63,419 bases of DNA, filler included, from 4 parts of 4 records of this genome joined end to end with filler, not necessarily neighbours in it; one strand, 5' to 3'; positions 4,029 to 52,016 are shown, numbered from the whole stretch's first letter. Notes: generated from the sequence alone by a model not told the origin. Made by a program: numbers and translations.

Positions 4029-4047
4029 GGTGTTTCGGGGGCGGGGT

Positions 4048-5322: not shown

Positions 5323-5441
5323 GGTCCGTCTCCCGCATTGTTTGCTTTGCCCTTGGGAAAAGCTGCGGGGAGAATTCGGCGACTTGATGGCAGTGGGGCG
5401 GGATTGACGTCAAAACAGGGGAGACGCCAGAAGGCGGCGGC

Positions 5442-6366: not shown

Positions 6367-6466
6367 NNNNNNNNNNNNNNNNNNNNNNNNNNNNNNNNNN
6401 NNNNNNNNNNTTAATTAATTAANNNNNNNNNNNNNNNNNNNNNNNNNNNNNNNNNNNNNNNNNNNN
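6367..6466. other. Artificial contig spacer
   Basis: N-run with central TTAATTAATTAA (stops in all six frames); abrupt GC shift across it. Confidence 0.98.
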
Positions 6467-20929: not shown

Positions 20930-23212
20930 ATGAAAGCATTACTCTCTACTCTTTTCCTCTGTTTTATTATTTCTGGTTTCTCGTATGCTCAAGATCGCGA
21001 ATTTCTATACTCCCTTGCTGTAAAAACAACCAAGGGAACTCCTGACGTGAATCGGGACGTAGTATTCATTGAAACTACTTCTTACGAGCATTTACCGCTT
21101 AAAACGGATAATCAAGGGAAATTAACGCACACTTTCACCTACGGAAGTTGGGTTGGATCTATTGGAGACATGCGAAATTGTATAAAAATTGAAGGGACGC
21201 GAAGAGGTTCGGCGAATGATGTTTTTACGTATGACCCTGAAAATTATGCGTTGCAAAATAAATCTGTCCCCGATCGTAGAACCATCGATTTTCTCGAAGT
21301 AGCTCAGGATAGAATTAGCCCGATGGAAGAACCAACGGCGAAGGAGACGATCCTCAACATTGTTTTACAAGATCGATCGAAAAAAGTATATCCAGGCGTA
21401 GAAGTCAAACTCTGTAATTTTGCGACAAAAACAATTTATACTTCTCGCACCAACAACAGTGGGGCGGCAATGTTTAAAATTCCCGTTGGATTAGAATACG
21501 AAATAGACATTGATGGCGTAGAATCTATCCGAAGACTTGCGCTTTCTCCCCTTCCGATGAATACAACGATGAGCATGTTGTATCAACCGCGCGATTTCAA
21601 GGAGAAAAAAGAGGATAAATTTATTGTTCAAAATGCCACGAAAGATATCAAGCCTAGTTCTTCGCACGCGAAAATAAAACTAAAAGTGCGGGGTGGAGAA
21701 AATGGCGGAATTAATGAAGACGTTTACGTTCGCATGCTGAAATCGAACGACGTGTATAAAGTGAAAACGAACGATCAAGGTGAAGCGATACTCATGCTTC
21801 CTATCAAACAAAAGTATTTCATCGATTTTACTTACCAACGCGATGCGAGTCAAATAGATCTTTCTCAGGTAAAAGGAATCGCGGAACAAACGATTTCTGT
21901 TTTGTATACTCCTGATCCCCGCTTACAAAACATCGAGAACTTTATTCCAAAAGTAAAAGACCTCGTCGCTTACGACGTTCAAAATTTTGTAGATAAGCAA
22001 TATCCGGAGCCTGTGAATGGCAATATTGATTTCTATTTGAACTGGGGAAATAAATTCAATAGTCAATCTAAAGAAGCCTTGCTCGAAATTGGCTTGAAAG
22101 TTAAATCTAAACTCGGAAGGAAAAATCCAACTCCGCTGAACATCTGTTTTGTGGTGGATAAAAGCGGTTCCATGATGGGCGAAGATCGAATAGATGAATT
22201 GAAAAAAGCGATGATTCTTTTTGTTCAACAATTAGAAGAAAATGACATCGTTTCTGTGATTGTATTCGACGATCAAAGTACCGTTGCGGTTCCTGCAGCT
22301 CCAATTGGAGATAAAAAGAAGGTCATTGATATCATTTACGCCATAGAAGCTGGTGGTGGAACGGTTATTTACGATGGCTTGGAACTTGGGTTCAAGGAGG
22401 TTGCGAAGAACGCTTCAAAAGGTTATGTGGATCGTGTAATTCTACTCACAGACGGTTATGGTTCTCGACCACCATTAGAAGTCATCGCCATGGCGAAATC
22501 TAACATAAGTAAAGGAATTGAACTGTCGGCTGTCGGTGTTGGCACGGACTACAATCAGGAATTATTGTCGCAATTGGCCTCTGCGGGTGGAGGATTAATG
22601 CATTTCGCAGGAACTGGAAGCAATATTCAATCAGCATTCATGAACGAGCTTCAATCCATTCTTTATCCTATCGCAGAAAAGGCAATGCTCGAAGTGAAAT
22701 ACAATGACCAAATTGTGTATCGTCAATTGTTCGGTTATTCGCAAGAGAAAGTGACTTCTGGCAAGATGACCGTTGCGATTCCTCATCTCTTCCCTGGACT
22801 GAATGAAATGGCGCTGATAAAGTTTGATTTAATTAATCCAACGAGAGAAATTATCAATGAAAAAGTGGTTGTTACCCTCAGTTACATCGATCCAGACACG
22901 AAAAAAGAAGTTCGAATGGAGAAGAAAATTCATCCAGAATGGACAGACGCCACAGGTGAATTGGACATGAGCCTCGACAAAGAACACAAAAAAATTCTCG
23001 CAGTTGCCATCGCCAATCAATCTATGAAAGTGATGGCGGAAAACTATGAGAAAGGAAACAAAACCGAAGCGGAAGAAGCAGTTAGACAGTCACTCGATCA
23101 GATCAATAAACTATTTCCAAAGGCGAAATCGGAAGAAATACTTGCGTTGGTGACGAAGCTTACTGAATATGTGGATGCATTCGAAACTTTAAAAACATTG
23201 AAATTGTATTGA
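20930..23212 (+). CDS. Secreted von Willebrand factor A domain protein (YfbK-like C-terminal VWA)
   Basis: Signal peptide; MIDAS DKSGS; 'GGGT', 'ILLTDG', 'GVGTDYN'. Confidence 0.85.
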   Translation: MKALLSTLFLCFIISGFSYAQDREFLYSLAVKTTKGTPDVNRDVVFIETTSYEHLPLKTDNQGKLTHTFTYGSWVGSIGDMRNCIKIEGTRRGSANDVFTYDPENYALQNKSVPDRRTIDFLEVAQDRISPMEEPTAKETILNIVLQDRSKKVYPGVEVKLCNFATKTIYTSRTNNSGAAMFKIPVGLEYEIDIDGVESIRRLALSPLPMNTTMSMLYQPRDFKEKKEDKFIVQNATKDIKPSSSHAKIKLKVRGGENGGINEDVYVRMLKSNDVYKVKTNDQGEAILMLPIKQKYFIDFTYQRDASQIDLSQVKGIAEQTISVLYTPDPRLQNIENFIPKVKDLVAYDVQNFVDKQYPEPVNGNIDFYLNWGNKFNSQSKEALLEIGLKVKSKLGRKNPTPLNICFVVDKSGSMMGEDRIDELKKAMILFVQQLEENDIVSVIVFDDQSTVAVPAAPIGDKKKVIDIIYAIEAGGGTVIYDGLELGFKEVAKNASKGYVDRVILLTDGYGSRPPLEVIAMAKSNISKGIELSAVGVGTDYNQELLSQLASAGGGLMHFAGTGSNIQSAFMNELQSILYPIAEKAMLEVKYNDQIVYRQLFGYSQEKVTSGKMTVAIPHLFPGLNEMALIKFDLINPTREIINEKVVVTLSYIDPDTKKEVRMEKKIHPEWTDATGELDMSLDKEHKKILAVAIANQSMKVMAENYEKGNKTEAEEAVRQSLDQINKLFPKAKSEEILALVTKLTEYVDAFETLKTLKLY

Positions 23213-23283: not shown

Positions 23284-24015
23284 TTAGGGATTGAGCGCTT
23301 CCTTCAGCACAATGGCTTTTTCACGGTTGTAGGAATAACCTGACTTCACATAGTGCTCTAGGAGTTTTTGTGCACTTTTAGCATCATCATTTTTCAACTG
23401 CGCAAGTATCAAGTACCAATTGATCGTAGGAATATACGCGCTTTCCACTCCCGAATCAAGAGTAGATTGGAGCAGTACTACTGATTTTTCGGGTTGATTA
23501 TTTTCGACATAGCAAACGGCAAGGTAGATGGTCACTATCGGCAAAGAATCGCTTGAAACTTGTTCAAAATAAGGTATTGCCAAGGCATAATTTCCAGCAT
23601 TGTACTGTTTCATTGCTATTTCTAAATCACCATTATCGCCTTGACTCATTTGTGTAATTCTATCAGGATACGGAGCGAAGTATTCTGCGGCTAACTCAAC
23701 AGAATTGGTAGAATTCGACGTTTGTAACCAGAGATAAGCCGGCACAGAGATCAACGCTAAGATGAAAACAGCAGCGATAACTTTTCTCCACGGAAAAGAA
23801 GTAGTTGCACCACGATGCAGTTGATGAATCCGTTGGCGTTCCAGATCTTTCGCACGTGCTTCGAGTAAAAGACCTAAACCGCGCTGAATTTTCACTTCTT
23901 CCTGCAGAAGCGGATCTTCGGAAAGTGTCTTCTCAAATGCCATTCGTTCGACATCCGATAACCTCCCACTTAGATAATTTTCGATTACTTCCGTTCTCTT
24001 TTCCGTCTCCATCAT
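23284..24015 (-). CDS. Putative anti-sigma factor: N-terminal cytoplasmic domain, one TM helix, C-terminal TPR-like domain
   Basis: 'IENYLSGRLSDVERMAFEKTLSEDPLLQEEV'; TM 'VIAAVFILALISVPAYLWL'; TPR-like 'AMKQYNAGNYALAIPYFE', 'WYLILAQLK'; ATGA overlap with the sigma gene. Confidence 0.75.
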   Translation of the reverse strand: MMETEKRTEVIENYLSGRLSDVERMAFEKTLSEDPLLQEEVKIQRGLGLLLEARAKDLERQRIHQLHRGATTSFPWRKVIAAVFILALISVPAYLWLQTSNSTNSVELAAEYFAPYPDRITQMSQGDNGDLEIAMKQYNAGNYALAIPYFEQVSSDSLPIVTIYLAVCYVENNQPEKSVVLLQSTLDSGVESAYIPTINWYLILAQLKNDDAKSAQKLLEHYVKSGYSYNREKAIVLKEALNP

Positions 24016-24605
24016 TGCAGATAATTTAATAAGTGCTCCTTCAACGATTGATTCGACGCGACATGCGATTTAAGTGCAGTCAAACACTTATTTTTCTTAT
24101 TCATAGCTATTTGCGCATTCTTATAGGACATGTGTAGAGCAATTTCGGTCATGGAATAATGCATACTCCACAATTCCAGTACTTTTTTACAGCTTGCTCC
24201 GATATGTGATAGAACCGCTTCTAAGCTCAATTTTAAATCGCCGTAAAGTTCCTTGATCGTATCTTCTTCCGAAGCTTCATCCAACTGATCATTCCAATCC
24301 GCGTGTTTCTTTTCTTTACGCAGGTGTTTGAGCCAAAGTCCTTTGCAGATGGAAAAAAGATAGGTATTCAAGCTGCTTTCACCGCGAAATGCTCCTTTTC
24401 TCACATTGAACAACAATTCCATAATTCCCTCGATCAAAATACTCGAAGCCATTTCTCGATTACCACTATTCTTCAATACATAGCCATAAATGGGAGATTC
24501 ATTCTTTTTAAGTAAGAACGAAATCACCTTGTCTTCCGACGCGCCTCCTTGTTTGATTCCTTCTATAACTTCCTGATCAGAATATGTTCTAAATAATCTT
24601 GGCAT
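24012..24605 (-). CDS. ECF-type RNA polymerase sigma-70 factor
   Basis: Region 2 'SSLNTYLFSICKGLWLKHLR'; region 4 'CKKVLEL..YSMTEIA..MSYKN..AMNKKNKCL'; ATG 24605 lies downstream of the promoter motif. Confidence 0.88.
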   Translation of the reverse strand: MPRLFRTYSDQEVIEGIKQGGASEDKVISFLLKKNESPIYGYVLKNSGNREMASSILIEGIMELLFNVRKGAFRGESSLNTYLFSICKGLWLKHLRKEKKHADWNDQLDEASEEDTIKELYGDLKLSLEAVLSHIGASCKKVLELWSMHYSMTEIALHMSYKNAQIAMNKKNKCLTALKSHVASNQSLKEHLLNYLQ

Positions 24606-24658
24606 AGTTTGACAAATATACGCGTTTCCGTGCGCAGACTTTTTTTTGATTTCAAAGG

Positions 24659-24688
24659 TAAGTCTCTCGAAGAAAGAAACCCTAACCA
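24659..24688 (-). promoter_or_regulatory. Putative ECF promoter for the sigma/anti-sigma operon
   Basis: Minus strand TGGTTAG-N16-AGACTTA. Confidence 0.6.
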
Positions 24689-24711
24689 ATTAGAAAAAAA
24701 TAATTTGTTTT

Positions 24712-24741
24712 TGGTTAGATTTAGCCGTCGAATTGCACTAA
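24712..24741 (+). promoter_or_regulatory. Putative ECF promoter for the PKD/DUF7619-like gene
   Basis: TGGTTAG-N16-GCACTAA, 15 nt upstream of ATG 24757. Confidence 0.7.
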
Positions 24742-24756
24742 CGATGGATAATAAAA

Positions 24757-26193
24757 ATGAATCCTATGTTTAAACGTTTAATTACATCTTTGATAACCGC
24801 ATTTTTACTGATTTTTAGCGGTTTCACGCTCAGTCAGCAGTCCGTGCAACACACTCCAGGAAATCGCGATAGATTTCAAATTACTCCGGCATTTCAACCC
24901 ACAAATCCACGGTCGGTATTTACCACTTTATGGTGGTTCGGCGATGGTGGTTACCGAATAATTCAGGGGCAGGCTGCAGCCCATTCATTCCATAATCCTA
25001 GTCAAATCAAAACCAACTTCCCTCCCTCGTCCTACAAAATTTTCGGAATTGTTACCGAAAATTATGGAAATACGGGACCTCCACCTGTGGTTGGTGTAGA
25101 CATTAACTACGGAAATTTAAGTCAGCCATTTGTTCCAAGTTTGCCGAAAATACTGAACGGCGTAACGAATTCAAATTATATCGACATTCGCAACTACCGT
25201 GATGCTGTTTTAGGTGACATTGTATATTTTATTGTGACTTACGGAAATCCTGAAGGTGGGAATGTTCTGAATCCTGAAAGCTATATCACCCTTGATTTTG
25301 GGGAGCACTCCGCTGATTTTGAGTACGCGATGAATGACAACACACGTCCCTCATTTTTGGCACATTGCGAATCATTTGCAGGAAACACGCACGAATTGAA
25401 ATGGAATATCGGATCGCCAATTAATCCAGGTGAAGAGCGGTCAATGTTACTTCCATTTAGATACAAAGGTTCAGAAAAGTCGGGAAGTTTTCCCGTTGCG
25501 ATAACCTTTCACCGTTCGGATTTAGTTCCTTCTCCTATTTTCACGGAAGAAACGGCATCGATCGCAATGAAATTTAGCGGGTCCCACGATCCGAATAGAA
25601 TTGAAGTAACTCCCGAAAACACCGACTGTGTCGTTGGCGGTAAAACCCTCAACTACAATATTCACTTTCAAAATGTGGGTGAGAAGGAAACACGTTATGT
25701 AAAAGTGGAAGTAAGCCTTGATGAAATGCATGATTTGTCAACGATTCATTTAACACGACTTCCGCACGGTATGTCCTTAAATCAATCCAATGCGCTTGTT
25801 GGATTTCCTTCAACTATTTCAAATACCCAAGCAAATTATTGGATCGATCAGAGCAATCACAAAGTGATTTTCGAGTTTCACAACCTAGTCCTCAGTGGAC
25901 TGTCTGATACGCTCTTAAACGATCCCGCTACAACGAGAGATATGTTTTCGTTTGAAGTGAAAGTGAAAAATAATTACGTGATTGGTGAAGATATAACGGC
26001 AAAAGCAGCCATTATTTTCGATGAAAACGATCCTGTAATCACCAATATTGCTGTTTCGACGTGTCCCAACCCTGTTTTGACTAATGAAAAGCCGTCAAAA
26101 TGGTGCGGCTGTTGGATTGTATATATTCTATTAGGAATTATTGTACTCTTACTTTTACTCCTGTTCTTGAGTCGAAAAAAGCAAAAAAAATAG
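24757..26193 (+). CDS. Exported PKD-like / DUF11-DUF7619-like protein with C-terminal membrane anchor
   Basis: Signal peptide; 'WWFGDG'; 'GSHDPN...LNYNIHFQNVG...AAIIFDENDPVITN'; C-terminal TM plus 'SRKKQKK'. Confidence 0.75.
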   Translation: MNPMFKRLITSLITAFLLIFSGFTLSQQSVQHTPGNRDRFQITPAFQPTNPRSVFTTLWWFGDGGYRIIQGQAAAHSFHNPSQIKTNFPPSSYKIFGIVTENYGNTGPPPVVGVDINYGNLSQPFVPSLPKILNGVTNSNYIDIRNYRDAVLGDIVYFIVTYGNPEGGNVLNPESYITLDFGEHSADFEYAMNDNTRPSFLAHCESFAGNTHELKWNIGSPINPGEERSMLLPFRYKGSEKSGSFPVAITFHRSDLVPSPIFTEETASIAMKFSGSHDPNRIEVTPENTDCVVGGKTLNYNIHFQNVGEKETRYVKVEVSLDEMHDLSTIHLTRLPHGMSLNQSNALVGFPSTISNTQANYWIDQSNHKVIFEFHNLVLSGLSDTLLNDPATTRDMFSFEVKVKNNYVIGEDITAKAAIIFDENDPVITNIAVSTCPNPVLTNEKPSKWCGCWIVYILLGIIVLLLLLLFLSRKKQKK

Positions 26194-26210
26194 CCTAAAA
26201 AACACTTTTT

Positions 26211-26243
26211 AGAAGGACTTCATTGATGTGAGGTCCTTTTTTT
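26211..26243 (+). terminator. Rho-independent terminator
   Basis: AAGGACTTCA / TGAGGTCCTT plus T-run. Confidence 0.75.
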
Positions 26244-26301
26244 GCGTTGAGTTGTACAAACTAATTGTTTATTTTCGCAGTGCATTTAAAACGGTGTTTG
26301 G

Positions 26302-29070
26302 TTGTTGAAATCCCTGATTCTTGTCGCTTTAGTCTTTGTTTCGTTAGCGACAAGTGTTGCACATGCGAATGCCCCCATTGATGCACTAAAGCATGAAATT
26401 CAGACCTATCGGAAGCAAAAGAAACTAGAGCTTTGGATCAATGCGCACAAAGCAATTGCGAAGCAGCACTTGGCGTCGTTGGAATATAAAAAAGCAATCT
26501 CTATTATTGATGAAATGGAGCGCACGAACTGGCGCAAACCTTCAACTCAAGCAGAAAAAATAGCCTGGTGTTGGGCAATTACGAACAGAGGTTATGTCAA
26601 ATCAGAAGGAGGCGATTATTTCGGAGCAAAAGAAGATTATCTAAACGTATTAATTGATTTTGAAGCATTCAATTATTTGGACCTCAATGTAATTAATCAC
26701 GTATATCACCCATTGGGAAATATTTACACTCGATTGGGAGAAAATGAGCAAGCCATTCGATTGTTGACTAAGTTTATTGAAGCAAACGTTACTGTCGACA
26801 ACAAACATTTCATCGGTTTAGGCTATAATGATTTAGGATTAGCATTCGCGAATAAAGGAGATTTTATAAGTGCGCTTGATTGTTACAACAAGGGCTTACA
26901 ACTTTCTGGAGAATCCAATGAAGCGAAAGGATTACTCGCTTCAAATGCTGCCGCTGCATCACTGAACACCGAAGAATATGACACCGGAATCCGCTTCGCG
27001 ATGAGCAGTCTTGCTTATTTTTCACGCATCGAAGGAGATTATCGAATCATGGGATATCAGGCTGGTGCGTATATTTCACTTGGAATGATTCTAACCAAAA
27101 AAGGTGACTTTGTAGAAGCCCAGCGCAACTTCATGCTCGCCGAGAACAAATTAACGGTGTGTCTACCGGAAAGGCAACACAGAACTTGGGGTAAATTATG
27201 TTTAGCCCGCGGAGAGAATCTTTTGAAACAGGGAAATCCAAGTGAAGCGCTTGCACATTATCAATCGGCACTTAAATCTGTCATTATTCGCTTCCATCCA
27301 ACATCGGATCATGAACTTCCGAACATTTCTCAATTATATCCCGAGGTAATTATTTTGGAAGCGCTGCTGAAGAAAGCAGAAGCCTACCGTGTTTTTGGCG
27401 AGAAAGAGAAGATGAAGGGCCATTTAGAACATTCTTATAGACATTACGAATATTACTTTTTGGCTGAGGGACTTTACAGAAGAGAATATACGAATCTCGA
27501 TTCAAAGCTGTCATTCATTCGAGAATTACACGATACTGGTGAGGAGGCACTTCAAGTAATCACATCACTTTATGCGCTTTCAAAAGATGAATCCTGGTTG
27601 CTGAAAGGTGTTTTATTGACAGAAAAGACGAAAGGGATTCTTTTATCCGAGTCAAACTTTGACAGTGCACTGAAAAATCGGCAATCATTACCAAAGGAAA
27701 TCCAAGAGTTGATTCGATACAGAAGTTATTCAGAATCCATTCAAGCGCAATTGTCCAAAGCGGGACTTAACAACGAAGGTGCTTCCATGAAATTTCTGAA
27801 AGAGCAGGACTTTCAATTAAGTCAAGAACTATTGCTTCTTACGGAGATTGTAAAGAAGAAATATCCCGCCATTTATAGAAATATGGCGACAACAAACTCC
27901 TTTGACACGCGTGATTTTGACCGTTTCATTCGTAAATTTCCCGTCAACACCATCACCTACTATTTCGGCAGTCAAGATGTGTATTGCTTTGGAATTATTA
28001 AGGGAAAAATTTACCTACATATTGAGTCCGTTTCGGAGACCTTAAGTAACCGCTTAAACATACTTAGAACACAATTAGCGACACCTGATTACGGTGCATT
28101 CACTTCCTACAAACGTGCTGCTGTTGGCTGTTATTCAGCTTTTATAAAGCCTTTTGAAACGTATCTTTCACAACACGAGCTACTCATTATTCCCGACGGA
28201 CCGCTCGCACTTTTGCCGTTTGAAGCATTTGCGAAAGGAAAAGGAACCAATTTCAAGAAACTAGATTACCTCGTCAGAAATTATGAAATCAGGTATGCTT
28301 ATTCTATGAAGCGTTTGATGAAGCCTCATCACCAAAATCAATTCAAAGAAAATTTTTTAGGCATTGCTCCACTCTTTAAAAATGGTTCAGAGTACGCTGA
28401 ATTGCCGTATTCGGAAAGTGAAATCAACGCAGGATTGAAATTGGGTGGAATTTCCTTGTTGGGGAAAGATGCGACGAAGAAAAAATTCATTGCGAACGCA
28501 GCCTATTATCGTATCCTTCACCTTTCAACACATGCGACAACGTGGGACGAGCGCTTCCATCAAGCTTCCATCGCTTTTTCTGGTAAAGACCCAATCAATA
28601 AACGTCACCTATTGACTTCCGAGTTAGCGACGCTCGATTGTGCACCTGAATTAATCGTTCTAAGCGCATGCGAAACTGGCTCGGGCGATTATATGAAAGG
28701 CGAAGGAGTAATGAGTTTGTCTAAAAGTTTTGCGCAAACGGGGAGTCGAAATATTATGGGATCGCTCTGGAAAGTAAATCACGCAGCGAACAGTGAAATT
28801 CTAAGTGATTTTTATAAAAGATTACCTGCAAACAACCCAAGTAAAGCGCTGACCTTCGCGAAGCGCCAGTATTTGAGCAACGAAAACGTCGACGAATTTA
28901 GCGCGCACCCACATTATTGGTCAAGCATGGTATTGGTAGGCTCGAATCAACTTTCGCTCAACACCCATATTTCTTGGGGGAATTGGTGGATACTTGGTGG
29001 CTCCACGGTTGGAATTTTTCTGCTGATCGTCCTAATTAAACTGAAACGAAGAGCACAATTGTCCAAGTAG
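26302..29070 (+). CDS. TPR-CHAT (caspase-like clan CD) protease with signal peptide and C-terminal TM anchor
   Basis: TPRs; CHAT motifs IIPDGPLALLPFEA, ILHLSTHA (His), VLSACETG (Cys), GEGVMSL, SLWKV, HPHYWS; TM 'WWILGGSTVGIFLLIVLI' plus KLKRR. Confidence 0.93.
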   Translation: MLKSLILVALVFVSLATSVAHANAPIDALKHEIQTYRKQKKLELWINAHKAIAKQHLASLEYKKAISIIDEMERTNWRKPSTQAEKIAWCWAITNRGYVKSEGGDYFGAKEDYLNVLIDFEAFNYLDLNVINHVYHPLGNIYTRLGENEQAIRLLTKFIEANVTVDNKHFIGLGYNDLGLAFANKGDFISALDCYNKGLQLSGESNEAKGLLASNAAAASLNTEEYDTGIRFAMSSLAYFSRIEGDYRIMGYQAGAYISLGMILTKKGDFVEAQRNFMLAENKLTVCLPERQHRTWGKLCLARGENLLKQGNPSEALAHYQSALKSVIIRFHPTSDHELPNISQLYPEVIILEALLKKAEAYRVFGEKEKMKGHLEHSYRHYEYYFLAEGLYRREYTNLDSKLSFIRELHDTGEEALQVITSLYALSKDESWLLKGVLLTEKTKGILLSESNFDSALKNRQSLPKEIQELIRYRSYSESIQAQLSKAGLNNEGASMKFLKEQDFQLSQELLLLTEIVKKKYPAIYRNMATTNSFDTRDFDRFIRKFPVNTITYYFGSQDVYCFGIIKGKIYLHIESVSETLSNRLNILRTQLATPDYGAFTSYKRAAVGCYSAFIKPFETYLSQHELLIIPDGPLALLPFEAFAKGKGTNFKKLDYLVRNYEIRYAYSMKRLMKPHHQNQFKENFLGIAPLFKNGSEYAELPYSESEINAGLKLGGISLLGKDATKKKFIANAAYYRILHLSTHATTWDERFHQASIAFSGKDPINKRHLLTSELATLDCAPELIVLSACETGSGDYMKGEGVMSLSKSFAQTGSRNIMGSLWKVNHAANSEILSDFYKRLPANNPSKALTFAKRQYLSNENVDEFSAHPHYWSSMVLVGSNQLSLNTHISWGNWWILGGSTVGIFLLIVLIKLKRRAQLSK

Positions 29071-29253
29071 GAAATCTTCCGTTGCGCGATTTTCCATTAT
29101 CTAATGTACTGTTTTCACAAGTTCGAATCTAAGTAAGTTCAACAATAATTCCCATTTCAATGATAAAATAGTGGCGGATAGAAGTATTTCTCACTATTAT
29201 AAACAACTGACTCACAGCCTATTAAAAAAATATTTTTTTTAAAAACACATTCA

Positions 29254-29283
29254 TGGTTAGGTTCTTGAACTGAACGGCACTCA
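29254..29283 (+). promoter_or_regulatory. Putative ECF promoter for the paralogous small-protein pair
   Basis: TGGTTAG-N16-GCACTCA, same spacing as 24712-24741. Confidence 0.7.
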
Positions 29284-29360
29284 TCAATGATTGGATGCAA
29301 ATTCATCAGGACGAAAGCCGAAAAGTCCTTCATAGAGTAGGCAACTTAAAAAAAACTAAT

Positions 29361-29831
29361 ATGAGTAATTTATTATCACTTGGAGAATTTGAATTGATCT
29401 TAAAGAAACAATCTCCTAACGACTTCAGAACAGACGGCTGCATCAAATGGCCACCGATTTTTGATTTCTTCTTTCCTCCAATGTTCGACCTATTTGCGCG
29501 TTCAAATGAATTGGTTAAAAATGCGAGCGTCAATCAAACTCCTGATTCCGTGAAAGAGTTGGGTTTCCGTATTGAAAATCAACTTATCCCAAAATTGAAA
29601 CAAGCGACCAGCGTTGAAGAAGCAGATACGATCGTCAAGGAAATTTTTTACGAATACCCAGAGATGAAAATGCTTGTTGCTGAATACAGTGACAAAGTGA
29701 AAGAAAGTCTTGGAAACAGCAGTGATCCAACACTTATGATGATTCCGCCGGTGATTGCTGTAATTGTAGTTAGAGCTGTAGCGGTGTACGCAATTGGATA
29801 TGGTATAGGCTACTTTTTTGGTGGTAAGTAA
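29361..29831 (+). CDS. Hypothetical protein A (156 aa) with C-terminal hydrophobic GxxxG bacteriocin-like peptide
   Basis: ATG 29361 after an A-rich leader; paralogous to the next ORF (MSNLLSLGEFEL vs MNEILSLGNVEL); tail MIPPVIAVIVVRAVAVYAIGYGIGYFFGGK. Confidence 0.75.
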   Translation: MSNLLSLGEFELILKKQSPNDFRTDGCIKWPPIFDFFFPPMFDLFARSNELVKNASVNQTPDSVKELGFRIENQLIPKLKQATSVEEADTIVKEIFYEYPEMKMLVAEYSDKVKESLGNSSDPTLMMIPPVIAVIVVRAVAVYAIGYGIGYFFGGK

Positions 29832-29850
29832 GACATTAAAAACAGAAATC

Positions 29851-30327
29851 ATGAATGAAATATTATCACTTGGAAATGTTGAACTTTTCCTTCGCGGAAA
29901 GTCTTCAAGCGGAAGTCTTCAGACAAAACAGTTATTGACAAATACGGAATGTATCTCAACTCCTGATTGGTGGATTGAACTCCTTCCATTTTTGTTCAAC
30001 TACTACATGAAGGGGTCAAGCATAGGATCAAAAGATTTTAGTACAGACTATCCCTATACCGCTGTTGATTTGCAAAAAAGTCTGACCGAAAAGATCATTC
30101 CTTCGGTTAAAAGAATGGAGGATTTCGATGCGATACACACTTCGTTGAAAGACGTTTATGCAGCACTTCCAGAAGCTAAATTCGCAATGAATGCCATTAA
30201 AACAGACGTCGGTTGTTCACCAAACTCAGGACCTGGCGCAATACAAGCAATTCCAATAATTCCGATTGTTTATGGCTTGATCTTTTTACTCGGCGTGAGT
30301 GATGGACTGAGAAATAAAAAGAAGTAA
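29851..30327 (+). CDS. Hypothetical protein B (158 aa), paralog of A, with C-terminal hydrophobic GxxxG peptide
   Basis: ATG 29851; tail AIPIIPIVYGLIFLLGVSDGLRNKKK; followed by a terminator. Confidence 0.75.
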   Translation: MNEILSLGNVELFLRGKSSSGSLQTKQLLTNTECISTPDWWIELLPFLFNYYMKGSSIGSKDFSTDYPYTAVDLQKSLTEKIIPSVKRMEDFDAIHTSLKDVYAALPEAKFAMNAIKTDVGCSPNSGPGAIQAIPIIPIVYGLIFLLGVSDGLRNKKK

Positions 30328-30350
30328 CCGAATAGTTCGATTATTAAGAG

Positions 30351-30386
30351 AAGAAAGGCTGTCTGAGAGGACAGTCTTTCTTTTTT
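30351..30386 (+). terminator. Rho-independent terminator (possibly bidirectional)
   Basis: AAGAAAGGCTGTC / GACAGTCTTTCTT plus T-run. Confidence 0.85.
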
Positions 30387-38058: not shown

Positions 38059-38610
38059 CAGCAGTGTCAGGATCGGCATGCCGAAGATCGTATGCACCAG
38101 CACCAGCCCGCCCAGATCGCCATACAGCCCGATTTCGCGCAGCAGGATCACAATCGGATAGATCATCACCTGATAGGGAATGAAGGCGCCGATGATGAGG
38201 ATGGTGAAAAATACGTTGGCACCTTTGAACCGCCACATCGACAGGGCGTAACCGTTGACCGAGGCCACCGCGATCGAGAAGAAGACGGAGGGCACGGTGA
38301 TCTTGATCGAGTTCCAGAAGCCGCGCGACAGGCCATCACAGTTCAGGCCGGTACAGACCGTCGACCACGCCTTGACCCAAGGCTCGAAGGTGATTTCCAT
38401 CGGCGGAGCAAAGATGCTGCCCATCCGGATCTCCGGCAGCCCTTTCAGCGACGTCATGAGCATCACGTAGAACGGCAAGAGATAATAGACCGCCAGAACC
38501 ACCAGAATGCCGTAGATCACGATGTTATTGCGGGAAAAGGCCCGACGGGGTTTGGGGCCGGATGCATGCGCCGGACTTGGGCGCTGCATGTTTGCGGTGA
38601 CATCAGCCAT
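38059..38610 (-). CDS. Carbohydrate ABC transporter permease, 3'-truncated
   Basis: Multiple TMs; 'YVMLMTSLK', 'FWNSIKITVPS', 'FIPYQV'. Confidence 0.9.
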
Positions 38611-39496
38611 GTTTCTTGCCTCCGAATTCAAGGTAAGCCCAAGGAATGACGACAACGATCACGGCCACCAGCATCATGCTGGACGCGGCAAAGCCCTGGG
38701 CAAGGTTTTGCGAAACGAACATCATGTCGAACACGAACTTCGCCGGGACCTCGGACGCGAGGCCAGGACCGCCACCGGTTTGCGCGATGACCAGATCGTA
38801 AAGCTTGATAATGGCAGAGGTGATCAGCACAAGTGTGGTGATGAAGACCGGACGCATCATCGGGATCACCACCAGCAGGTAGGTTTTCCATGCTGGAATG
38901 CCGTCGATCTTGGTGGCCTTCCACACGTCTTCGTCAATGCCGCGCAGACCCGCCAGCATCAGGCACATCACAAGGCCACTGGTGTGCCACAGACCTGCGA
39001 TCAGCACCCCGTAAAGCACCGTGTTCGTGTTATAGAGTGGATCGAAGGTGAAGGTCTCAAACCCGAGGCTGCGCACGGCGTGCTGTATCCCGAACTCGGG
39101 GTTCAACAGCCACTGCCAGACAAGGCCCGTAACGATAAAGCTGAGCGCATAAGGGTAGAGGAAGATGGTGCGAAACCCATCCTCGAAGCGGATTTTCTGA
39201 TCAATCAGAGCGGCCAGAAGAAAGCCGAGCACCAGAGCGAGGATCAGCATCAAGATGCCGTAAATCGCGAGATTCTCGATTGAGATGAGCCACCGGCGGG
39301 TGCCCCAAAGACGTTCATATTGATCAAGCCCAACCCATTTGGTGCTGGGCAGAAGGCGGGAGTTGGTAAAGGAATAGACGATTGTCCAGACAGAGCACCC
39401 AACAAAGACCACAAGCGCGGTCAGCACCATGGGAACGGCGGCGATTTTAGCACTCAGGTTCTTGAACAGCCCTGTCGGTTTGCCGCTTTGCGACAT
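38603..39496 (-). CDS. Carbohydrate ABC transporter permease
   Basis: 'FRTIFLYPYALSFIVTGLVWQWLLNP'; EAA-like 'WKATKIDG'. Confidence 0.92.
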   Translation of the reverse strand: MSQSGKPTGLFKNLSAKIAAVPMVLTALVVFVGCSVWTIVYSFTNSRLLPSTKWVGLDQYERLWGTRRWLISIENLAIYGILMLILALVLGFLLAALIDQKIRFEDGFRTIFLYPYALSFIVTGLVWQWLLNPEFGIQHAVRSLGFETFTFDPLYNTNTVLYGVLIAGLWHTSGLVMCLMLAGLRGIDEDVWKATKIDGIPAWKTYLLVVIPMMRPVFITTLVLITSAIIKLYDLVIAQTGGGPGLASEVPAKFVFDMMFVSQNLAQGFAASSMMLVAVIVVVIPWAYLEFGGKKHG

Positions 39497-39530
39497 TGGG
39501 AATCCTCCGGTTTTAAAGGGTGTGGCAAAG

Positions 39531-39564
39531 GCGGCGCGGATCGGCGTCAGAAGATCCGCGCCGC
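39531..39564 (-). other. Intergenic stem-loop between binding-protein and permease genes
   Basis: GCGGCGCGGATC / GATCCGCGCCGC perfect 12-bp inverted repeat. Confidence 0.6.
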
Positions 39565-39570
39565 GGTCTG

Positions 39571-40803
39571 TCAGTCAGCCGTTGCGATGATTTCGGCAAA
39601 CTCGGCCTGCGCGGTCTCGGGGCTAAAGCTGGGGTCGGCAAAGAATTCAATCATCAGATCGGTCACCCGGCCCACGGTATCCGGCGATACCATAGTGTTG
39701 ATACTCTCCACAATGTGGCCTTCTTTGAGGATCGCCATGCCCTTTTCCATGCAAGGGGTCGGATCCCGCAACTCCACGTCGCGGCGCACCGGCAGCGCGC
39801 CTTTCGCCTTGGTAAATTCCACCTGAGTTTCCGGGGAAACGATCACACCAGCCAGTACATCCTGCGCGGCAATGATCTCCGGGTCATCGACTTTCGGGAA
39901 ATAGAAGGCATCGCCTGCGGCGGTGATGTATTCATTCACGCCCAGACCCGGCAGACAGGAAAAGTCTTCGCCCGCTGTCATCCCGGCCTGTGTGAATTCC
40001 CCTTGAACCCAATCGCCCATGATCTGACCTGCGGCACGACCGCTGATCATCAGGTTGGCGGCTTCGTTCCAGGCCTGAACATTCGAGCCTTCCATGAGGT
40101 CGCGTGCCTCCGCGGCGGCCTTAAACACTTTGGCCACGTCAGATCCAGCGGCGTAGTCAGCGTCGCGCCCGGCATAGACCCGTTCAAAAAGCTCGGGACC
40201 ACCGATGGAGACCATCAGCACGTTGAACATCAACTGTTTCTGCCAGGATTGCTGCCCCTGCGCCAAGGGGATGATGTCCATCTCGCGCAGCTTCGGCGCA
40301 GCAGCGACGAATTCGTCCCAGTTCTGCGGCACGGAGAGGCCATTGTCGGTAAACACGGCGTTGTTCAGCCACAGCCACTGTTGCGAGTGGATGTTCGAGG
40401 GCACGCAATAGAGTTTGCCTTCGAAGGTGCAGCTATCGAGCAGCGATTGCGGGAAGATCTGATCTTTCCAGCCCTGCGCCTCGGCAACCTCTGTCACGTC
40501 ACGCATAAAGCCCGCTTCGATCAGCTCGCGCATCGCCTGGCCGTGGGTGAACTGCGTGGCCCCCATCGGATCGCCGCCGGTGATCCGGCTGGTGATCAGC
40601 GGACGGGCAACCCCGCCCGCACCGGCGATAGCGCCGTCAACCCAAGTGTTGCCACTCTTCTGGAAGCCTTCGGAGATGACGCGGATCGCTGCAGCCTCAG
40701 CCCCGGAGGTCCACCAATGGGTCACCTCCAGATCAGTGGCCAAGACTGGTTGGGCCGCCGCAGCCGTCAACATCCCCAGTGCGAATGTCTTGAATTTTGT
40801 CAT
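39571..40803 (-). CDS. Sugar ABC transporter substrate-binding protein (GtsA/glucose-like)
   Basis: Signal peptide; 'LEVTHWWTSGAEAAA', 'P.NIHS..WLW.N', 'QIMGDW'. Confidence 0.9.
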   Translation of the reverse strand: MTKFKTFALGMLTAAAAQPVLATDLEVTHWWTSGAEAAAIRVISEGFQKSGNTWVDGAIAGAGGVARPLITSRITGGDPMGATQFTHGQAMRELIEAGFMRDVTEVAEAQGWKDQIFPQSLLDSCTFEGKLYCVPSNIHSQQWLWLNNAVFTDNGLSVPQNWDEFVAAAPKLREMDIIPLAQGQQSWQKQLMFNVLMVSIGGPELFERVYAGRDADYAAGSDVAKVFKAAAEARDLMEGSNVQAWNEAANLMISGRAAGQIMGDWVQGEFTQAGMTAGEDFSCLPGLGVNEYITAAGDAFYFPKVDDPEIIAAQDVLAGVIVSPETQVEFTKAKGALPVRRDVELRDPTPCMEKGMAILKEGHIVESINTMVSPDTVGRVTDLMIEFFADPSFSPETAQAEFAEIIATAD

Positions 40804-41062
40804 AGTTCTCTCCCATGTGAACTGTGGTCGTTACACGTCCTGCGACATTGCGCGAGCGTGAAATCCGTGGTGTCCGGCCGGTTCATGCGCCGGGTCTTTT
40901 ATGTATTCAACTGTCCGTTTCAGCGACGATCAGGTCAACAGATCGGAGATTTGCCGCGCCAAAACAATTTGTATGAGGCTTTGAACTAAAAGAATTTTTT
41001 GCAACCTCCGGACATAGCCGGCGCTACTTTTCGACCTCTGACAGTACTTTGCCGACCACGCC

Positions 41063-42265
41063 TCAACCGGCAATCACCCCGGCGGCACGCAGATTGGCAA
41101 TCTCATCGCTGCTGTAGCCGATTTCGGACAAGACCTTATCCGTCTGTGCGCCCATCTTTTGCGGCGGGTTCTCCAGCGAGGGGCCGTCCTCCTGCATCCG
41201 AAAACCGGCCAGCGTGGTGGTCATCCCCTCAGGCGTTCCATCGGCCCCGTCGAATCTGTGCAGCACCGGCCGCGCCAGAGTCTGCACATCGCTCAACGCC
41301 TCGCCCAGATCCCGGATACGGGCGCAGGGGATACCGTGTGCCTGTAGCCGCTCCTCCCAATAGGCCGCCGAGCGTCTCAGGAAGGCGGTTTGCAGGACAA
41401 CGCTTTCCTCTTCATGCGCATCGAGCCGCTGGTTGTTGTCCTGCTTGACCATGTCCTCGCGCCCGAGCAAGCGCCAAAGCTTGGCCTGCTGTTTGAGGTT
41501 CGAAGCCGAGACCATCATCGGCGCGTCGCTGGCGTGATACATGCCGATTGTCGCAAAAACATAGGTATTGCCTTTCGGGGCCGGAACCTTGCCGTTCCAA
41601 AAATAAGAAGCCACATGCGAGGTCGCGAACATCAGTGCCACATCCAGCATCGACACATCGACGAAATTGCCGATGCCACCGTTACGCGCGCGCTGTAACA
41701 AGGCCGCAGTGATCGCATAGGCGGTGGTGGTGCCCGCCGCGTAATCCATGATCGGCGCGCCGCATTTGAATGGCTTTTCCGGATCGTCTCCGGTCATCGC
41801 CATGAAGCCGGAAAACGCCTGAATGATGTTGTCATAACCGCGTAGTTCACGCCGTGGTCCGGTCGTCCCAAAAGCCGAAAGCGAGCAATAAATCAGCCCG
41901 GGGTTGCGCACCTTGAGATCCTCATAGCCGAGCCCCAATGCCTCGAATGCCCCCGGTCGATAGTTTTCAATGAAGACATCTGCTGTGTCGATCAGGCGCA
42001 GCATCGCCTCCTTGCCCTCGGGCGTCTTCAAGTCTATCGCGACTGAAGATTTATTGCCCGCTTGCCCCAGAAAAGCCGTGCCCATTCCGATGTCATTCAT
42101 CGCCCGATCCGGCCCTTGGGCGCGTGCCTGATCGGGATCGTTCGGATCCTCTACCTTGATGACATCGGCACCAAGTGTGGCCAGCTGGAACGCCGCGAAA
42201 GGCCCAGCCAACACATGTGTGGTATCGATCACCCTATAGTTTTGAAACGCCTTCATTTGGGTCAA
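41063..42265 (-). CDS. Family III CoA-transferase (CaiB/BaiF)
   Basis: 'AGPFAA..LATLGADVIKVE', 'ADVFIENYRPG', 'GYDNIIQA', 'DYAAG'. Confidence 0.92.
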   Translation of the reverse strand: MTQMKAFQNYRVIDTTHVLAGPFAAFQLATLGADVIKVEDPNDPDQARAQGPDRAMNDIGMGTAFLGQAGNKSSVAIDLKTPEGKEAMLRLIDTADVFIENYRPGAFEALGLGYEDLKVRNPGLIYCSLSAFGTTGPRRELRGYDNIIQAFSGFMAMTGDDPEKPFKCGAPIMDYAAGTTTAYAITAALLQRARNGGIGNFVDVSMLDVALMFATSHVASYFWNGKVPAPKGNTYVFATIGMYHASDAPMMVSASNLKQQAKLWRLLGREDMVKQDNNQRLDAHEEESVVLQTAFLRRSAAYWEERLQAHGIPCARIRDLGEALSDVQTLARPVLHRFDGADGTPEGMTTTLAGFRMQEDGPSLENPPQKMGAQTDKVLSEIGYSSDEIANLRAAGVIAG

Positions 42266-42482
42266 CTCCGTCCCTTTTCTGATCTTGCCGATATTTGCTG
42301 GCGGCTTGGATCAAAGCGGTGCAATCTGGTCTCAGCGCTTATTGAAGGCGCCAAGCGGGTTGTAATCAACGTCGTTTGCTTTCCGAAATGTTGGGTCAGT
42401 TCTGACCTATGCGTTCCCCGCCCTCGCGCGTGTTCGGCTATGATGGAAGGGACGAAAATATTTGGCGAGATCGCACAATACC

Positions 42483-44171
42483 ATGACCACCAACAGCCTG
42501 CCGCTTTCGGATGCGACGCTCTGCGCAGCGCCCTTTCACCTAGATGCAAGGGGGCTGGACTGGGTCAAGACGCAATTCAACGCGCTCGGGACAGAGGCGA
42601 AGATTGCGCAGCTCATTCTGCCGATGTGCCGTGATCTGTCCGATGACAGTATCGACGCCTTGGCCGCACGCGGGCTCGGCGGGGTGCATCGGTTCCCCAG
42701 CTATTCCGAGGAGGAACTGCGCCACTCGGCCCAGCGTCTGATGCAAACCTGTGCCGTGCCGCCGCTGTTAACTGCCGATATCGAGATGTCTGAAAAGGCC
42801 AGCGTCAAGGCTGGCACCGCCTTCCCTAACCAAATGGCTGTCGCCGCGACGGGTGATCCCGAAAATGCCCGGCGGATGGGGGCAATCGCGGCACGCGAGG
42901 CGGGCTATCTCGGTTTTGGCATCAGTTGGACGCCAGTGGCCGATCTCGCGCTGAATTTCCGCTCCAACGCGGTGAACACCCGCAGCTTTTCCGACAAGGT
43001 CGATCAGACGCTTTCGATGGTCTGTGCCTATCTCGACGGGATGCAGGACGATGGCCTTGTGGCCTGCGTCAAACATTTCCCCGGCGAGGGGCTGGACGAG
43101 CGCGATCAACACTACGTCACCACCCACAACACCATGGCAATGGACGATTGGTACGCAAGTTTCGGCAGGATCTACGCCGCCGCAATCGCCAAGGATGTCC
43201 GCCTTGTCATGGCCGGTCACGTCACCCTTCCGGCCTATCGTCGGAACACAGGAGACGCGGCAGTGAGCGGGGCCACCCTCCCGGCCTCACTCAATGCGAA
43301 CCTGCTTGGCGAACTGCTGCGCGGGGAACTGGGATATAACGGTGTCATCGTTTCGGATGCGACGGGCATGGCGGGATTCACCTCCTGCGGGGCGCGCAAG
43401 GACATTGTCCCGCTTTGCATCGAAAGCGGATGCGACATTCTGCTATTTCCGCGCGATATCGACGAGGATATGCAGTTTCTCCGCGACGGTCTGGACAGTG
43501 GCGCGCTGTCGCAAACCCGCCTGGACCAAGCGGTGCTACGCATTCTGGCGCTCAAGGCGTCCATGGGATTGCATCTTGGCCGCCCCACCGTGCCACCCGA
43601 GCGCCAGCGCGCACGGTTGCTGGCATCCGAGGAGCATAGCGGCTGGGCCAAAGGTGTCGCAGAAGGCTGCGTGACCTTGGTCAAGGATACCCAAAGCCTG
43701 TTGCCCCTGTCGCCCGAACGCCACCGCCGCATCCTGTTGGCCGAGTTGCGCGACCGCCGCAGCCCCTCCGCCCCCCTGCCCGACCTCGAAATCCCCACCA
43801 TGCTGGAACAGCTCGGGTTCGAGATCACCCGCGTTGTCCCGGGCGAGCCCATTGATGCAACCGGGCAGGACATCGGCCTGTATCTGATGGCTGAGGAAGG
43901 GCTCTCGGGCAAAGAGCACCTCGGGCCGCAATGGGAACGGCTGCACGGCGCCTTTCCACTGACGATGCAGCGCATGTGGCAGCATCTGCCGACGCTCTAT
44001 GTTTCGCTCGGCTCGCCTTTCCTGACCTTTCACATGCCCGATTGTCCAACCTTCGTGAACGCCTATAGCGCAGTGCGCCCGGTCCAGCAGGCCGTCGTCG
44101 ATGCCCTGACCGGCGCGATTTCCTTCCGGGGCGAAAGCCCGGTGGAGCTGCCCTTTGGCCTCCCCCTCTGA
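42483..44171 (+). CDS. Glycoside hydrolase family 3 (Nag3/BglP-like)
   Basis: 'PVADL', 'NTRSF', KHFPGEGLDERDQH, nucleophile 'VSDA'. Confidence 0.9.
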   Translation: MTTNSLPLSDATLCAAPFHLDARGLDWVKTQFNALGTEAKIAQLILPMCRDLSDDSIDALAARGLGGVHRFPSYSEEELRHSAQRLMQTCAVPPLLTADIEMSEKASVKAGTAFPNQMAVAATGDPENARRMGAIAAREAGYLGFGISWTPVADLALNFRSNAVNTRSFSDKVDQTLSMVCAYLDGMQDDGLVACVKHFPGEGLDERDQHYVTTHNTMAMDDWYASFGRIYAAAIAKDVRLVMAGHVTLPAYRRNTGDAAVSGATLPASLNANLLGELLRGELGYNGVIVSDATGMAGFTSCGARKDIVPLCIESGCDILLFPRDIDEDMQFLRDGLDSGALSQTRLDQAVLRILALKASMGLHLGRPTVPPERQRARLLASEEHSGWAKGVAEGCVTLVKDTQSLLPLSPERHRRILLAELRDRRSPSAPLPDLEIPTMLEQLGFEITRVVPGEPIDATGQDIGLYLMAEEGLSGKEHLGPQWERLHGAFPLTMQRMWQHLPTLYVSLGSPFLTFHMPDCPTFVNAYSAVRPVQQAVVDALTGAISFRGESPVELPFGLPL

Positions 44172-44308
44172 ACGCGGTCTGACCAGTCGTTTATGTATCC
44201 CAAGTGCAGACCAAAGGTTGGTTTACCCGTCGCGCGGATGGCTTTTTACTGCCCACAGTCTGGCGCGACAAGCGCCTGACTTGCTCTTGAGGAGGAGACA
44301 AGAACATC

Positions 44309-45292: not shown

Positions 45293-45331
45293 TCTCGGTT
45301 CGGATCTTACGCTCCCGTTCGGTCGGATTTA

Positions 45332-45361
45332 AAACAGGGCACGCGACAGCGTGCCCTGTTT
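45332..45361. terminator. Bidirectional terminator
   Basis: AAACAGGGCACGC-GACA-GCGTGCCCTGTTT between convergent genes. Confidence 0.8.
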
Positions 45362-45365
45362 GCGT

Positions 45366-47449: not shown

Positions 47450-47463
47450 GGTCTCGTCCTTTT

Positions 47464-51372: not shown

Positions 51373-51446
51373 GATCTCTTTCCCGTTTTGATAAGACGAA
51401 CGTACGCAGGGAACCGGGCCGGCGTTGCGGCCCGACTCCAACCGGC

Positions 51447-51929: not shown

Positions 51930-52016
51930 CCTGAGTCTCCTGTTCATTGGATGTCCCCACCCTGTTACCAGTGCTCCACACCACGCAATACTGCAATCAT
52001 TTAGGAATCAATTATG

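Follow-up and report, generated by a model that had tools for sequence, protein, structure and literature searches.

A conserved Bacteroidota module of an ECF sigma factor, its membrane anti-sigma factor and a TPR-CHAT protease, with a proposed proteolytic link between them

The subject of this report is a six-gene locus at positions 23284..30386 of a window of 63,419 bases (the whole stretch of DNA that was analysed, a joined composite). Four of its genes encode a sigma factor of the extracytoplasmic function (ECF) type, an anti-sigma factor, an exported DUF7619 protein and a caspase-like protease with tetratricopeptide repeats (TPR) and a CHAT domain, and by sequence comparison these four constitute a real module that is conserved across many Bacteroidota. 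No paper on a Bacteroidota sigma/CHAT/DUF7619 module was found in a survey that covered the ECF-group supplement of PMC7826278 only in part, and the module is apparently undescribed in that phylum. The reading preferred here, with a probability of roughly 0.45, is that the module is a split analogue of the DdvA/DdvS system of Myxococcus xanthus, one in which the CHAT protein would act as the site-1 protease of the anti-sigma factor. The four core genes are as follows:

23284..24015, minus strand: anti-sigma factor, 243 aa, with a cytoplasmic N-terminal helical domain, a transmembrane helix at residues 79-97, a linker containing YPDRITQMS (116-124) and a periplasmic TPR domain
24012..24605, minus strand: divergent ECF-type sigma factor, 197 aa from the start MPRLF
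24757..26193, plus strand: exported, stalk-like DUF7619 protein, 478 aa, with immunoglobulin (Ig)-like beta-sandwich domains, a PKD-like N-terminal motif, DUF7619, and a C-terminal transmembrane helix followed by RKKQKK
26302..29070, plus strand: TPR-CHAT caspase-like cysteine protease, 922 aa, with a signal peptide, TPR repeats, a CHAT domain at residues 611-881, and a C-terminal transmembrane helix (896-914) followed by KRRAQLSK

Conservation and composition of the core

Relatives of the CHAT protein were gathered by an alignment-profile scan, which recovered 80 loci from Crocinitomicaceae, Saprospiraceae, Lewinellaceae, Chitinophagaceae, Sphingobacteriaceae and Flavobacteriaceae; a scan of genome contigs with the single protein gave no match. 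The open reading frames (ORFs) of these loci were clustered, stop-to-stop frames were searched with hidden Markov models, and 16 of the 80 loci were dropped for an upstream flank shorter than 6 kb, leaving 64. In 61 of these 64, the DUF7619 gene lies directly upstream of CHAT on the same strand, while a divergent sigma gene is present in 45, an anti-sigma gene in 42, and all three partner genes in 42. The sigma and anti-sigma genes are conserved as a pair, standing upstream in the same 42/64 loci and downstream instead in four more, and they also remain together when unlinked from CHAT; counting either side, a sigma gene is found in 50 of the 64. Moreover, a lipoprotein gene of about 330 codons that matches no Pfam family (cluster c4) is located between the sigma and DUF7619 genes in 29 loci. 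The first-pass annotation had named six genes in the window and had proposed looking for the shared occurrence of sigma, anti-sigma, PKD and CHAT genes in other genomes; all six genes were recovered in the sequence, and the core was found to co-occur widely.

Further evidence for the module comes from genomes in which its parts are separated. Four genomes whose CHAT locus has no adjoining sigma gene (G412-G415) were examined, and all four encode the sigma and anti-sigma factors elsewhere. For three of them (G412-G414), the unlinked sigma factor scored 234-241 bits, against 243 for a linked one, and its gene and c4 point away from each other with the same promoter motif present, while the unlinked sigma factor of G415 scored 156 bits. 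A test seeded with the sigma factor led to the same association. An even sample of 401 Bacteroidota genomes was searched with eight candidates scored per genome, an orthologue being defined by E <= 1e-50, and 12 of them gave a sigma orthologue. In 11 of 11 sigma-positive genomes, the genome G002 being left out, CHAT had a full-length orthologue (442-666 bits) within a few kb of the sigma gene, as opposed to 0 of 11 sigma-negative genomes, where the best matches covered the CHAT domain only and 6 of 11 gave no match at 1e-40. Finally, the four module families diverge in step, with pairwise-distance correlations of 0.88-0.93 across 41 loci, although shared ancestry alone would give the same result.

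The sigma factor is a divergent member of the ECF (group IV) sigma-70 factors, as judged from its sequence profiles. It matched the sigma70-ECF model TIGR02937 with an E value of 1.9e-10 and 40.7 bits, slightly under the cutoff of 42.9, and a profile of its family matched solved ECF sigma factors over positions 4-176 of 194 (E 4.5e-14). Among 34 aligned family members, Sigma70_r2 was detected in 28, r4_2 in nine and r4 in five. Two cysteines that flank the sigma-4 helix-turn-helix, C140 and C175, are nearly invariant across the family (alignment A8), which is unusual for ECF sigma factors, and this pair might be joined as a disulfide or make up a site that responds to redox state or to metal.

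The sigma stop codon overlaps the anti-sigma start by 4 nt. The anti-sigma factor matched TPR_19 (E 1.8e-05), and its N-terminal domain gave a weak match only, to NF052375 (E 9.3e-05, 22.5 bits where the cutoff is 100), with no match in a comparison of this domain with the Protein Data Bank (PDB). The zinc motif H-x3-C-x2-C of the ZAS subclass is missing, there being no cysteine in residues 1-78. In three related loci (L034, L051 and L054), one or two extra anti-sigma-like paralogues occur directly 3' of CHAT, besides the upstream sigma/anti-sigma pair.

The TPR-CHAT protein is, by its sequence, a clan CD caspase-like cysteine protease with an intact His/Cys dyad, as had been read from the window at the outset. 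Its CHAT domain matched PF12770 (E 2.4e-47), and all 56 of the 56 orthologues aligned keep the predicted catalytic residues, H744 and C790. Compared with PDB sequences, the CHAT domain alone gave no match and the full profile matched TPR proteins only. Because the protein has both a signal peptide and a C-terminal transmembrane helix with a basic tail, its bulk would be periplasmic and tethered to the inner membrane, and according to topology prediction the TPR domain of the anti-sigma factor and the DUF7619 protein share one compartment with CHAT. The earlier proposal of a CRISPR-independent, envelope-facing module is supported.

The fourth component, the DUF7619 protein, matched PF24595 (E 1.4e-20) and possesses a signal peptide and the PKD-like motif WxFGDG; the literature turned up for DUF7619 includes a survey of isopeptide bonds. 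Its structural model (mean predicted local distance difference test (pLDDT) of 78.9) is a string of beta-sandwich domains resembling the leg domains of integrins and the Ig-like adhesin stalks of Gram-positive bacteria, with the low TM-scores that are expected for a multidomain protein. Most lineages have a longer form consisting of PKD, DUF7619 and DUF7849, and the DUF7849 tail ends in an aromatic residue in the last positions (WKF, WRL) and shows an alternating hydrophobic pattern in 30 of 192 windows, against 5.3 +/- 4.4 in shuffled sequences. The tail is a probable outer-membrane beta-barrel anchor, judging from these features; a search of the PDB with the DUF7849 profile found no relative. 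The anchor itself appears to have been swapped (alignment A7), with the probable beta-barrel DUF7849 in most lineages (e.g., L020:5943-7982) and a single transmembrane helix with a basic tail in Crocinitomicaceae and some Saprospiraceae.

The predicted protease-linker contact and known relatives

The physical link between the protease and the anti-sigma factor was addressed by complex prediction with ESMFold2, without alignments, on the periplasmic parts of the two proteins (CHAT 48-895 and anti-sigma 97-243). The pair scored 0.68, compared with 0.00 for the best of three controls, on a test whose mark 51 of 78 solved complexes attained, as did 2 of 108 mismatched pairs; separate runs agreed in at least 92% of contacts, and the pLDDT of the partners was at least 82. 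The confident interface joins the catalytic H744 and CHAT residues 824-830 and 861-872 to anti-sigma residues 117-124 (PDRITQMS), and within it the anti-sigma R119 contacts CHAT residues 826, 828, 829, 867 and 872. Residue Y872 is a tyrosine in 48 of 56 orthologues, and residue 827 is D in 41 of the 56, E in seven and H in eight. On the anti-sigma side, an R or K occurs about 18-28 residues after the transmembrane helix in all 36 aligned proteins, with D, E, N or Q standing before it in 30 of 36; this tally is a count of motifs (in the forms YPDR, ERG, VVRG and others) and not of an alignment column. Taken together, the modelled interface and the conserved basic residue are the pattern that would be expected of an Arg-cleaving protease and its substrate. 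Modelling of this complex had been proposed along with the first description of the locus, and it predicts a contact with the catalytic histidine in the interface; the proteolytic cascade put forward there is plausible and now has a specific predicted interface.

Regulated proteolysis of anti-sigma factors is known from other settings. In the RseA/DegS/RseP, RsiW/PrsW and RsiV systems, a single-pass anti-sigma factor receives a site-1 cut that is followed by an intramembrane site-2 cut. In a different setting, the TPR-CHAT protease Csx29 is cytoplasmic, RNA-guided and CRISPR-associated, unlike the periplasmic CHAT protein described here. Identity of the latter with type III-E Csx29 was considered and rejected, as the NF041237 model scored it at 18.7 bits against a cutoff of 300 and no cas genes were seen among the ORFs of the locus. 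The resemblance to Csx29 (Craspase), Csx30 and CASP-sigma of type III-E CRISPR lies in a TPR-CHAT protein that sets an ECF sigma factor free by cutting a partner protein (taken partly from PMC10028731).

The closest parallel is DdvA, in which an anti-sigma factor is fused to a periplasmic TPR-CHAT that is proposed, in the portion of PMC11506125 available, to cut its own linker before RseP acts; within that same portion, DdvA-like proteins are reported only from Myxococcota and one Comamonas. Both systems have an ECF sigma factor held by a single-pass anti-sigma factor and a periplasmic TPR-CHAT with a His/Cys dyad, and for both a juxtamembrane linker cut is proposed as the site-1 step before an RseP-type cleavage (for DdvA, as far as that portion goes). 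Like DdvA, the CHAT protein of the window is predicted to be periplasmic and to face the anti-sigma linker, with H744 and linker residues 117-124 in the modelled interface. Unlike DdvA, the protease is here encoded apart from the anti-sigma factor, on the opposite strand, and has a signal peptide and a C-terminal anchor of its own; the N-terminal domain of the anti-sigma factor lacks the zinc-site cysteines. Further differences are the presence of the DUF7619 protein, and often of a lipoprotein, as obligatory partners, and a host phylum that is the Bacteroidota; the predicted regulon also differs, comprising the module and small add-ons and not the CBASS/CRISPR island that the excerpted source describes for DdvA/DdvS.

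A second parallel is found in ECF54 of Actinobacteria, a group linked to CHAT-TPR genes that have been proposed to regulate or respond to the sigma factor (supplement of PMC7826278, in the section covered, citing Huang et al. 2015). The shared feature is an ECF sigma factor conserved beside a CHAT-domain protein with TPR repeats. Unlike the module described here, ECF54 has no recognisable anti-sigma factor according to the same section, its neighbours are subtilases and carboxypeptidase-regulatory-like proteins, and its promoter is GTATCAG / CTCC (PMC7826278). As for RseA, RsiW and RsiV, the likeness is in the proposed scheme of a periplasmic site-1 cut followed by a site-2 cut (taken partly from the available text of PMC11506125), and the difference is in the enzyme, which would be a module-encoded clan CD cysteine protease, probably induced by the sigma factor, and not a serine protease or metalloprotease.

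In the proposed mechanism, the sigma factor would be held at the membrane by the anti-sigma factor at rest. An envelope signal, perhaps perceived through the DUF7619 protein, the lipoprotein or the TPR arrays, would then activate CHAT, which would cut the anti-sigma linker directly outside the membrane, either at the conserved Arg (R119 in the window) or beside it, as a site-1 protease. Subsequent intramembrane proteolysis would free the sigma factor, and the freed sigma factor would raise expression of the module, in positive feedback, together with that of local add-on genes.

Promoter motif, predicted regulon and competing explanations

A shared promoter-like motif had been pointed out before three transcription units of the locus, and it proved to be real. 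The pattern TGGTTAG-N18-ACT has exactly three matches in the window, where 0.01 would be expected, and none of 100 shuffled sequences reached three; no copy precedes CHAT in the window. These sites, together with a hairpin between two of the core genes, are as follows:

24658..24688, minus strand: TGGTTAG-N18-ACTTAC, about 52 nt before the sigma start (core match 24661-24688)
24712..24742, plus strand: TGGTTAG-N18-ACTAAC, 14 nt before the start of the DUF7619 gene (core match 24712-24739)
29254..29284, plus strand: TGGTTAG-N18-ACTCAT, 76 nt before small1 (core match 29254-29281)
26211..26240, plus strand: between the DUF7619 gene and CHAT, a terminator-like hairpin of 13 pairs with a T run behind it

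The nearest relative locus (L001) has the same back-to-back pair of motifs, with two matches against 0.04 expected, and likewise has a hairpin. In other lineages, the counterpart motif is GGGTAACAAA-N13-TGATAT, and 34 of the 48 intergenic regions on the sigma side contain GGTAACA, compared with 0.7 expected. A relaxed form of the motif gave 73 matches in the loci, of which 30 precede c4, eight the DUF7619 gene and six c9, while six lie inside sigma upstream of anti-sigma, 11 precede a few other genes and 12 precede nothing. Where the DUF7619-CHAT operon is unlinked, it keeps the motif before the DUF7619 gene (L010, L031 and L041), and across lineages the gap between these two genes has an operon-like median of 38 nt. 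From this distribution in the sequences, we infer that the shared motif is the target promoter of the sigma factor.

Genome-wide, the exact motif is rare. Five genomes have 1, 3, 2, 2 and 0 sites, with none in reversed controls, and in all four genomes with any exact site, one site belongs to the module itself. Neither the main-lineage motif with up to two mismatches nor a looser Crocinitomicaceae pattern, GGTTAK-N16-18-MNTAAC, was commoner than in the control, and neither scan gives evidence of a large regulon. Because the motif is taken as the sigma factor's target, the conserved regulon would consist of the module itself and a few lineage-specific genes. Basal, sigma-independent expression of CHAT would be allowed because the gene follows a terminator-like hairpin in the window and in L001, and positive feedback is likely because CHAT elsewhere lies in the operon.

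The lineage-specific sites are instructive in their own right. The Crocinitomicaceae genome G002, that of the nearest relative, has four sites of the window-type motif, against none in its control, and one of the four belongs to the module itself. Another, TGGTTAG-N18-ACTAAC, precedes a lanthipeptide-like cluster (L090, at G002:C42:17000-24000; promoter 2896-2925, genes 2947-6687), comprising an ORF of 153 aa whose C-terminus is rich in Cys, an APH/kinase-like protein, and a HopA1-lyase plus LanC-like protein, arranged as a split class IV-like synthetase. The motif also precedes two paralogous, secreted M43 metallopeptidases with PKD domains (L091 1699-5429, and L092; contigs C72 and C129), the complete one being 1219 aa long. 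No sigma gene adjoins these lanthipeptide and M43 sites. In Chitinophagaceae-type loci, a conserved protein of 96-97 aa without a signal peptide (cluster c9) is encoded directly after CHAT, on the opposite strand and behind a sigma-type promoter. Loci with c9 or with a Cys-rich lipoprotein, c53, are L021, L028, L039, L044, L050 and L062, and c53 carries the motif in L039 and L062; both families are predicted from these positions to be further lineage-specific members of the regulon. Finally, in L021, L028, L044, L049, L052 and L053 the sigma gene itself contains a weaker copy of the motif (GGTAACAAA...TTATCT or TTATAT), some 200-330 nt upstream of where the anti-sigma gene starts. The protein at that point reads (G/P)VT(K/N), and the copy may be an internal anti-sigma promoter or only a consequence of the coding sequence.

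Several points weigh against CHAT as the site-1 protease of its neighbouring anti-sigma factor. Within the model, C790 is missing from the part of the interface that is placed with confidence, residue 827, the candidate acidic residue of the pocket, is replaced by His in the window's own lineage, and the linker motifs YPDR and ERG do not fall in one MAFFT column. The complex test was also passed by 7 of 44 neighbouring gene pairs drawn blind, and the score may lean on solved separase-securin or craspase-substrate complexes. As for gene content, 14 of the 64 loci have no adjoining sigma gene, and the genomes of only four of those were examined; no fused anti-sigma-CHAT protein was seen among the longer anti-sigma relatives in a set of 20 matches, which is weak evidence. 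Self-cleavage of DdvA is itself still presented as a hypothesis in the part of PMC11506125 available. Regarding expression, most lineages have no motif copy before sigma, and CHAT could be purely an output because in most lineages it stands in an operon behind a sigma-type promoter.

This last possibility, which is rather doubtful, would make the operon the endpoint of the pathway. The anti-sigma TPR domain would sense the signal, and the anti-sigma factor would be removed by an unrelated protease or a conformational change, while the lipoprotein, the DUF7619 protein and CHAT would be effectors, together an inducible complex of periplasmic protease and stalk whose task would be to remodel or clean the envelope or to process local add-on proteins. 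A conserved sigma-type promoter before the c4/DUF7619/CHAT operon, the short gap between its last two genes, a tiny regulon centred on the module, and the lack of a motif before sigma in most lineages are all in keeping with such a role. The predicted placement of the conserved anti-sigma linker in the CHAT active-site region speaks for a more direct connection, as does the retention of a basic linker residue in 36 of 36 anti-sigma factors. Moreover, in the window and in L001 a terminator-like hairpin stands between the sigma-type promoter and CHAT, as would suit a protease already made before induction. A position within the operon is also compatible with an upstream role, as in Fec-type systems, where sensor components are encoded within the target operon.

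The same predicted interface could conceivably reflect inhibition, an unlikely arrangement in which the anti-sigma linker would sit in the CHAT active site as a securin-like pseudo-substrate and keep the protease inactive, or in which binding of CHAT would stabilise the anti-sigma factor, the true substrates being the DUF7619 protein, the lipoprotein or other envelope proteins. Separase is held in this way by securin, according to the portion of PMC11506125 available, and the in-step divergence of the families also counts in its favour, though shared ancestry alone suffices. No feature separates pseudo-substrate from substrate here, and a P1-like Arg that is conserved would be expected of a substrate that is cleaved. 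Less probable still is anti-phage or suicide defence, in which infection sensed at the envelope would trigger death or defence genes, much like the CBASS/CRISPR island under DdvA control or the bacterial gasdermins activated by caspases. Apart from add-on genes that vary by lineage, its support is an analogy with DdvA/DdvS only (PMC11506125, in the text available). In a PADLOC search, CHAT gave only a weak match to a TPR model (E 0.0013), and the other six proteins (those of the five remaining genes of the locus and an adjoining VWA protein) gave no match. The protease is periplasmic, the neighbouring genes are ordinary (UvrA, 3-HAO, LodA and others), the predicted regulon comprises lipoproteins, small membrane proteins, a lanthipeptide-like cluster and M43 peptidases, and no gasdermin, CBASS or CRISPR genes were seen. 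The defence or suicide role put forward in the first-pass annotation is without evidence.

Extending the site-1 reading to the phylum gives a broader and more tentative proposal, namely that across the Bacteroidota a periplasmic caspase-like protease would be the dedicated site-1 protease of its own ECF anti-sigma factor, cutting after a conserved linker Arg, with an outer-membrane Ig-like stalk and a lipoprotein as the envelope-spanning sensor. Such a system would amplify itself and would drive lineage-dependent competition factors, such as the lanthipeptide cluster and the secreted M43 peptidases. To our knowledge, the mode of activation of most Bacteroidota ECF sigma factors is unknown, and we know of bacterial CHAT caspase-like proteases mainly in connection with CRISPR, gasdermins and one myxobacterial anti-sigma factor. 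The module is a compact, genetically testable system that is found in cultured strains of Chitinophaga, Pedobacter, Mucilaginibacter, Lutibacter and Lewinella, among them Chitinophaga niastensis, Pedobacter superstes, Mucilaginibacter rigui, Lutibacter oceani and Lewinella cohaerens. Its experimental handles are a promoter motif that is defined, a predicted regulon of very small size, and specific predictions both of the cleavage site and of the protease-substrate interface. It could settle whether CHAT proteases act as site-1 proteases, as hypothesized for DdvA, and could reveal the envelope signal that they read. If the proposal is true, caspase-type proteolysis would be a general, CRISPR-independent route to sigma factor activation across the bacterial envelope.

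The two small proteins, neighbouring genes and the window

The remaining two genes of the locus follow CHAT:

29361..29831, plus strand: small1, 156 aa, belonging to a rare family; four-helix bundle and a single transmembrane helix at the C-terminus
29851..30327, plus strand: small2, 158 aa, a tandem paralogue of small1

The two proteins share 24% identity (E 1e-8), their true starts at 29361 and 29851 having been placed by a 48-nt direct DNA repeat, and small2 is probably co-transcribed with small1, from which it is separated by a 19-nt gap. Neither has a signal peptide, and each ends in a single C-terminal transmembrane helix with a basic tail; the model consists of an N-terminal hairpin, a four-helix bundle and the transmembrane helix (mean pLDDT 77.3), and a comparison with PDB folds returned none at E 0.001, the best E value being 0.6. 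The family is rare, with only 12 relatives among 1.84 billion representatives. Searches of Pfam, NCBIfam and PADLOC gave no match, a word search with small1 found no relatives, and the best Atlas score was 0.78, below the useful range. An alignment of small2 with three relatives (A4) had no match in metagenome contigs. The small proteins were found in none of the 80 related loci, are missing from the five nearest genomes, and gave one marginal match among 401 sampled genomes of the order.

An initial description of small1 and small2 as bacteriocin-like precursors did not hold up, and their identification as bacteriocins or ribosomally synthesized and post-translationally modified peptides was rejected: neither has a signal or double-glycine leader or a Cys-rich core, and no transporter or modification genes accompany them. 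The bulk of each protein is probably cytoplasmic, and for this reason the pair would be out of reach of a periplasmic protease. Because they stand behind a sigma-type promoter, they are probably local members of the regulon, and by these sequence criteria they appear to be a local, lineage-specific add-on to the module.

Beyond small2, DUF1801/YdeI and DoxX genes are encoded on the other strand. On the opposite side of the locus, a VWA gene (20930-23212, plus strand) is convergent to the anti-sigma gene and encodes an exported protein of 760 aa with a weak stretch resembling MG3 of bacterial alpha-2-macroglobulin. This VWA gene and an SppA gene were considered as members of the module and ruled out, since neither they nor the DUF1801 and DoxX genes occur in any of the 80 related loci. 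The genes 3' of CHAT vary among the related loci and are of the ordinary types listed above, in line with the variable downstream cargo that had been anticipated for the system.

Finally, the window combines DNA from at least two organisms, and its composite nature is evident in its base composition, with a GC content of about 0.55 up to position ~6350, about 0.39 at ~6350-38100 and about 0.60 beyond, the steps being sharp. The six-gene locus lies wholly within the Bacteroidota-like block of 39% GC, and because of this the chimerism of the window has no effect on the finding. The low-GC block matches the Crocinitomicaceae metagenome-assembled genome G002 at 66-68% nucleotide identity and has no match in G001, while bases 38200-56337 are identical (100%) to one end of the G001 contig C14. 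The region of the locus is also present in sequencing runs labelled as four organisms, which suggests a co-cultured or contaminating Bacteroidota strain.

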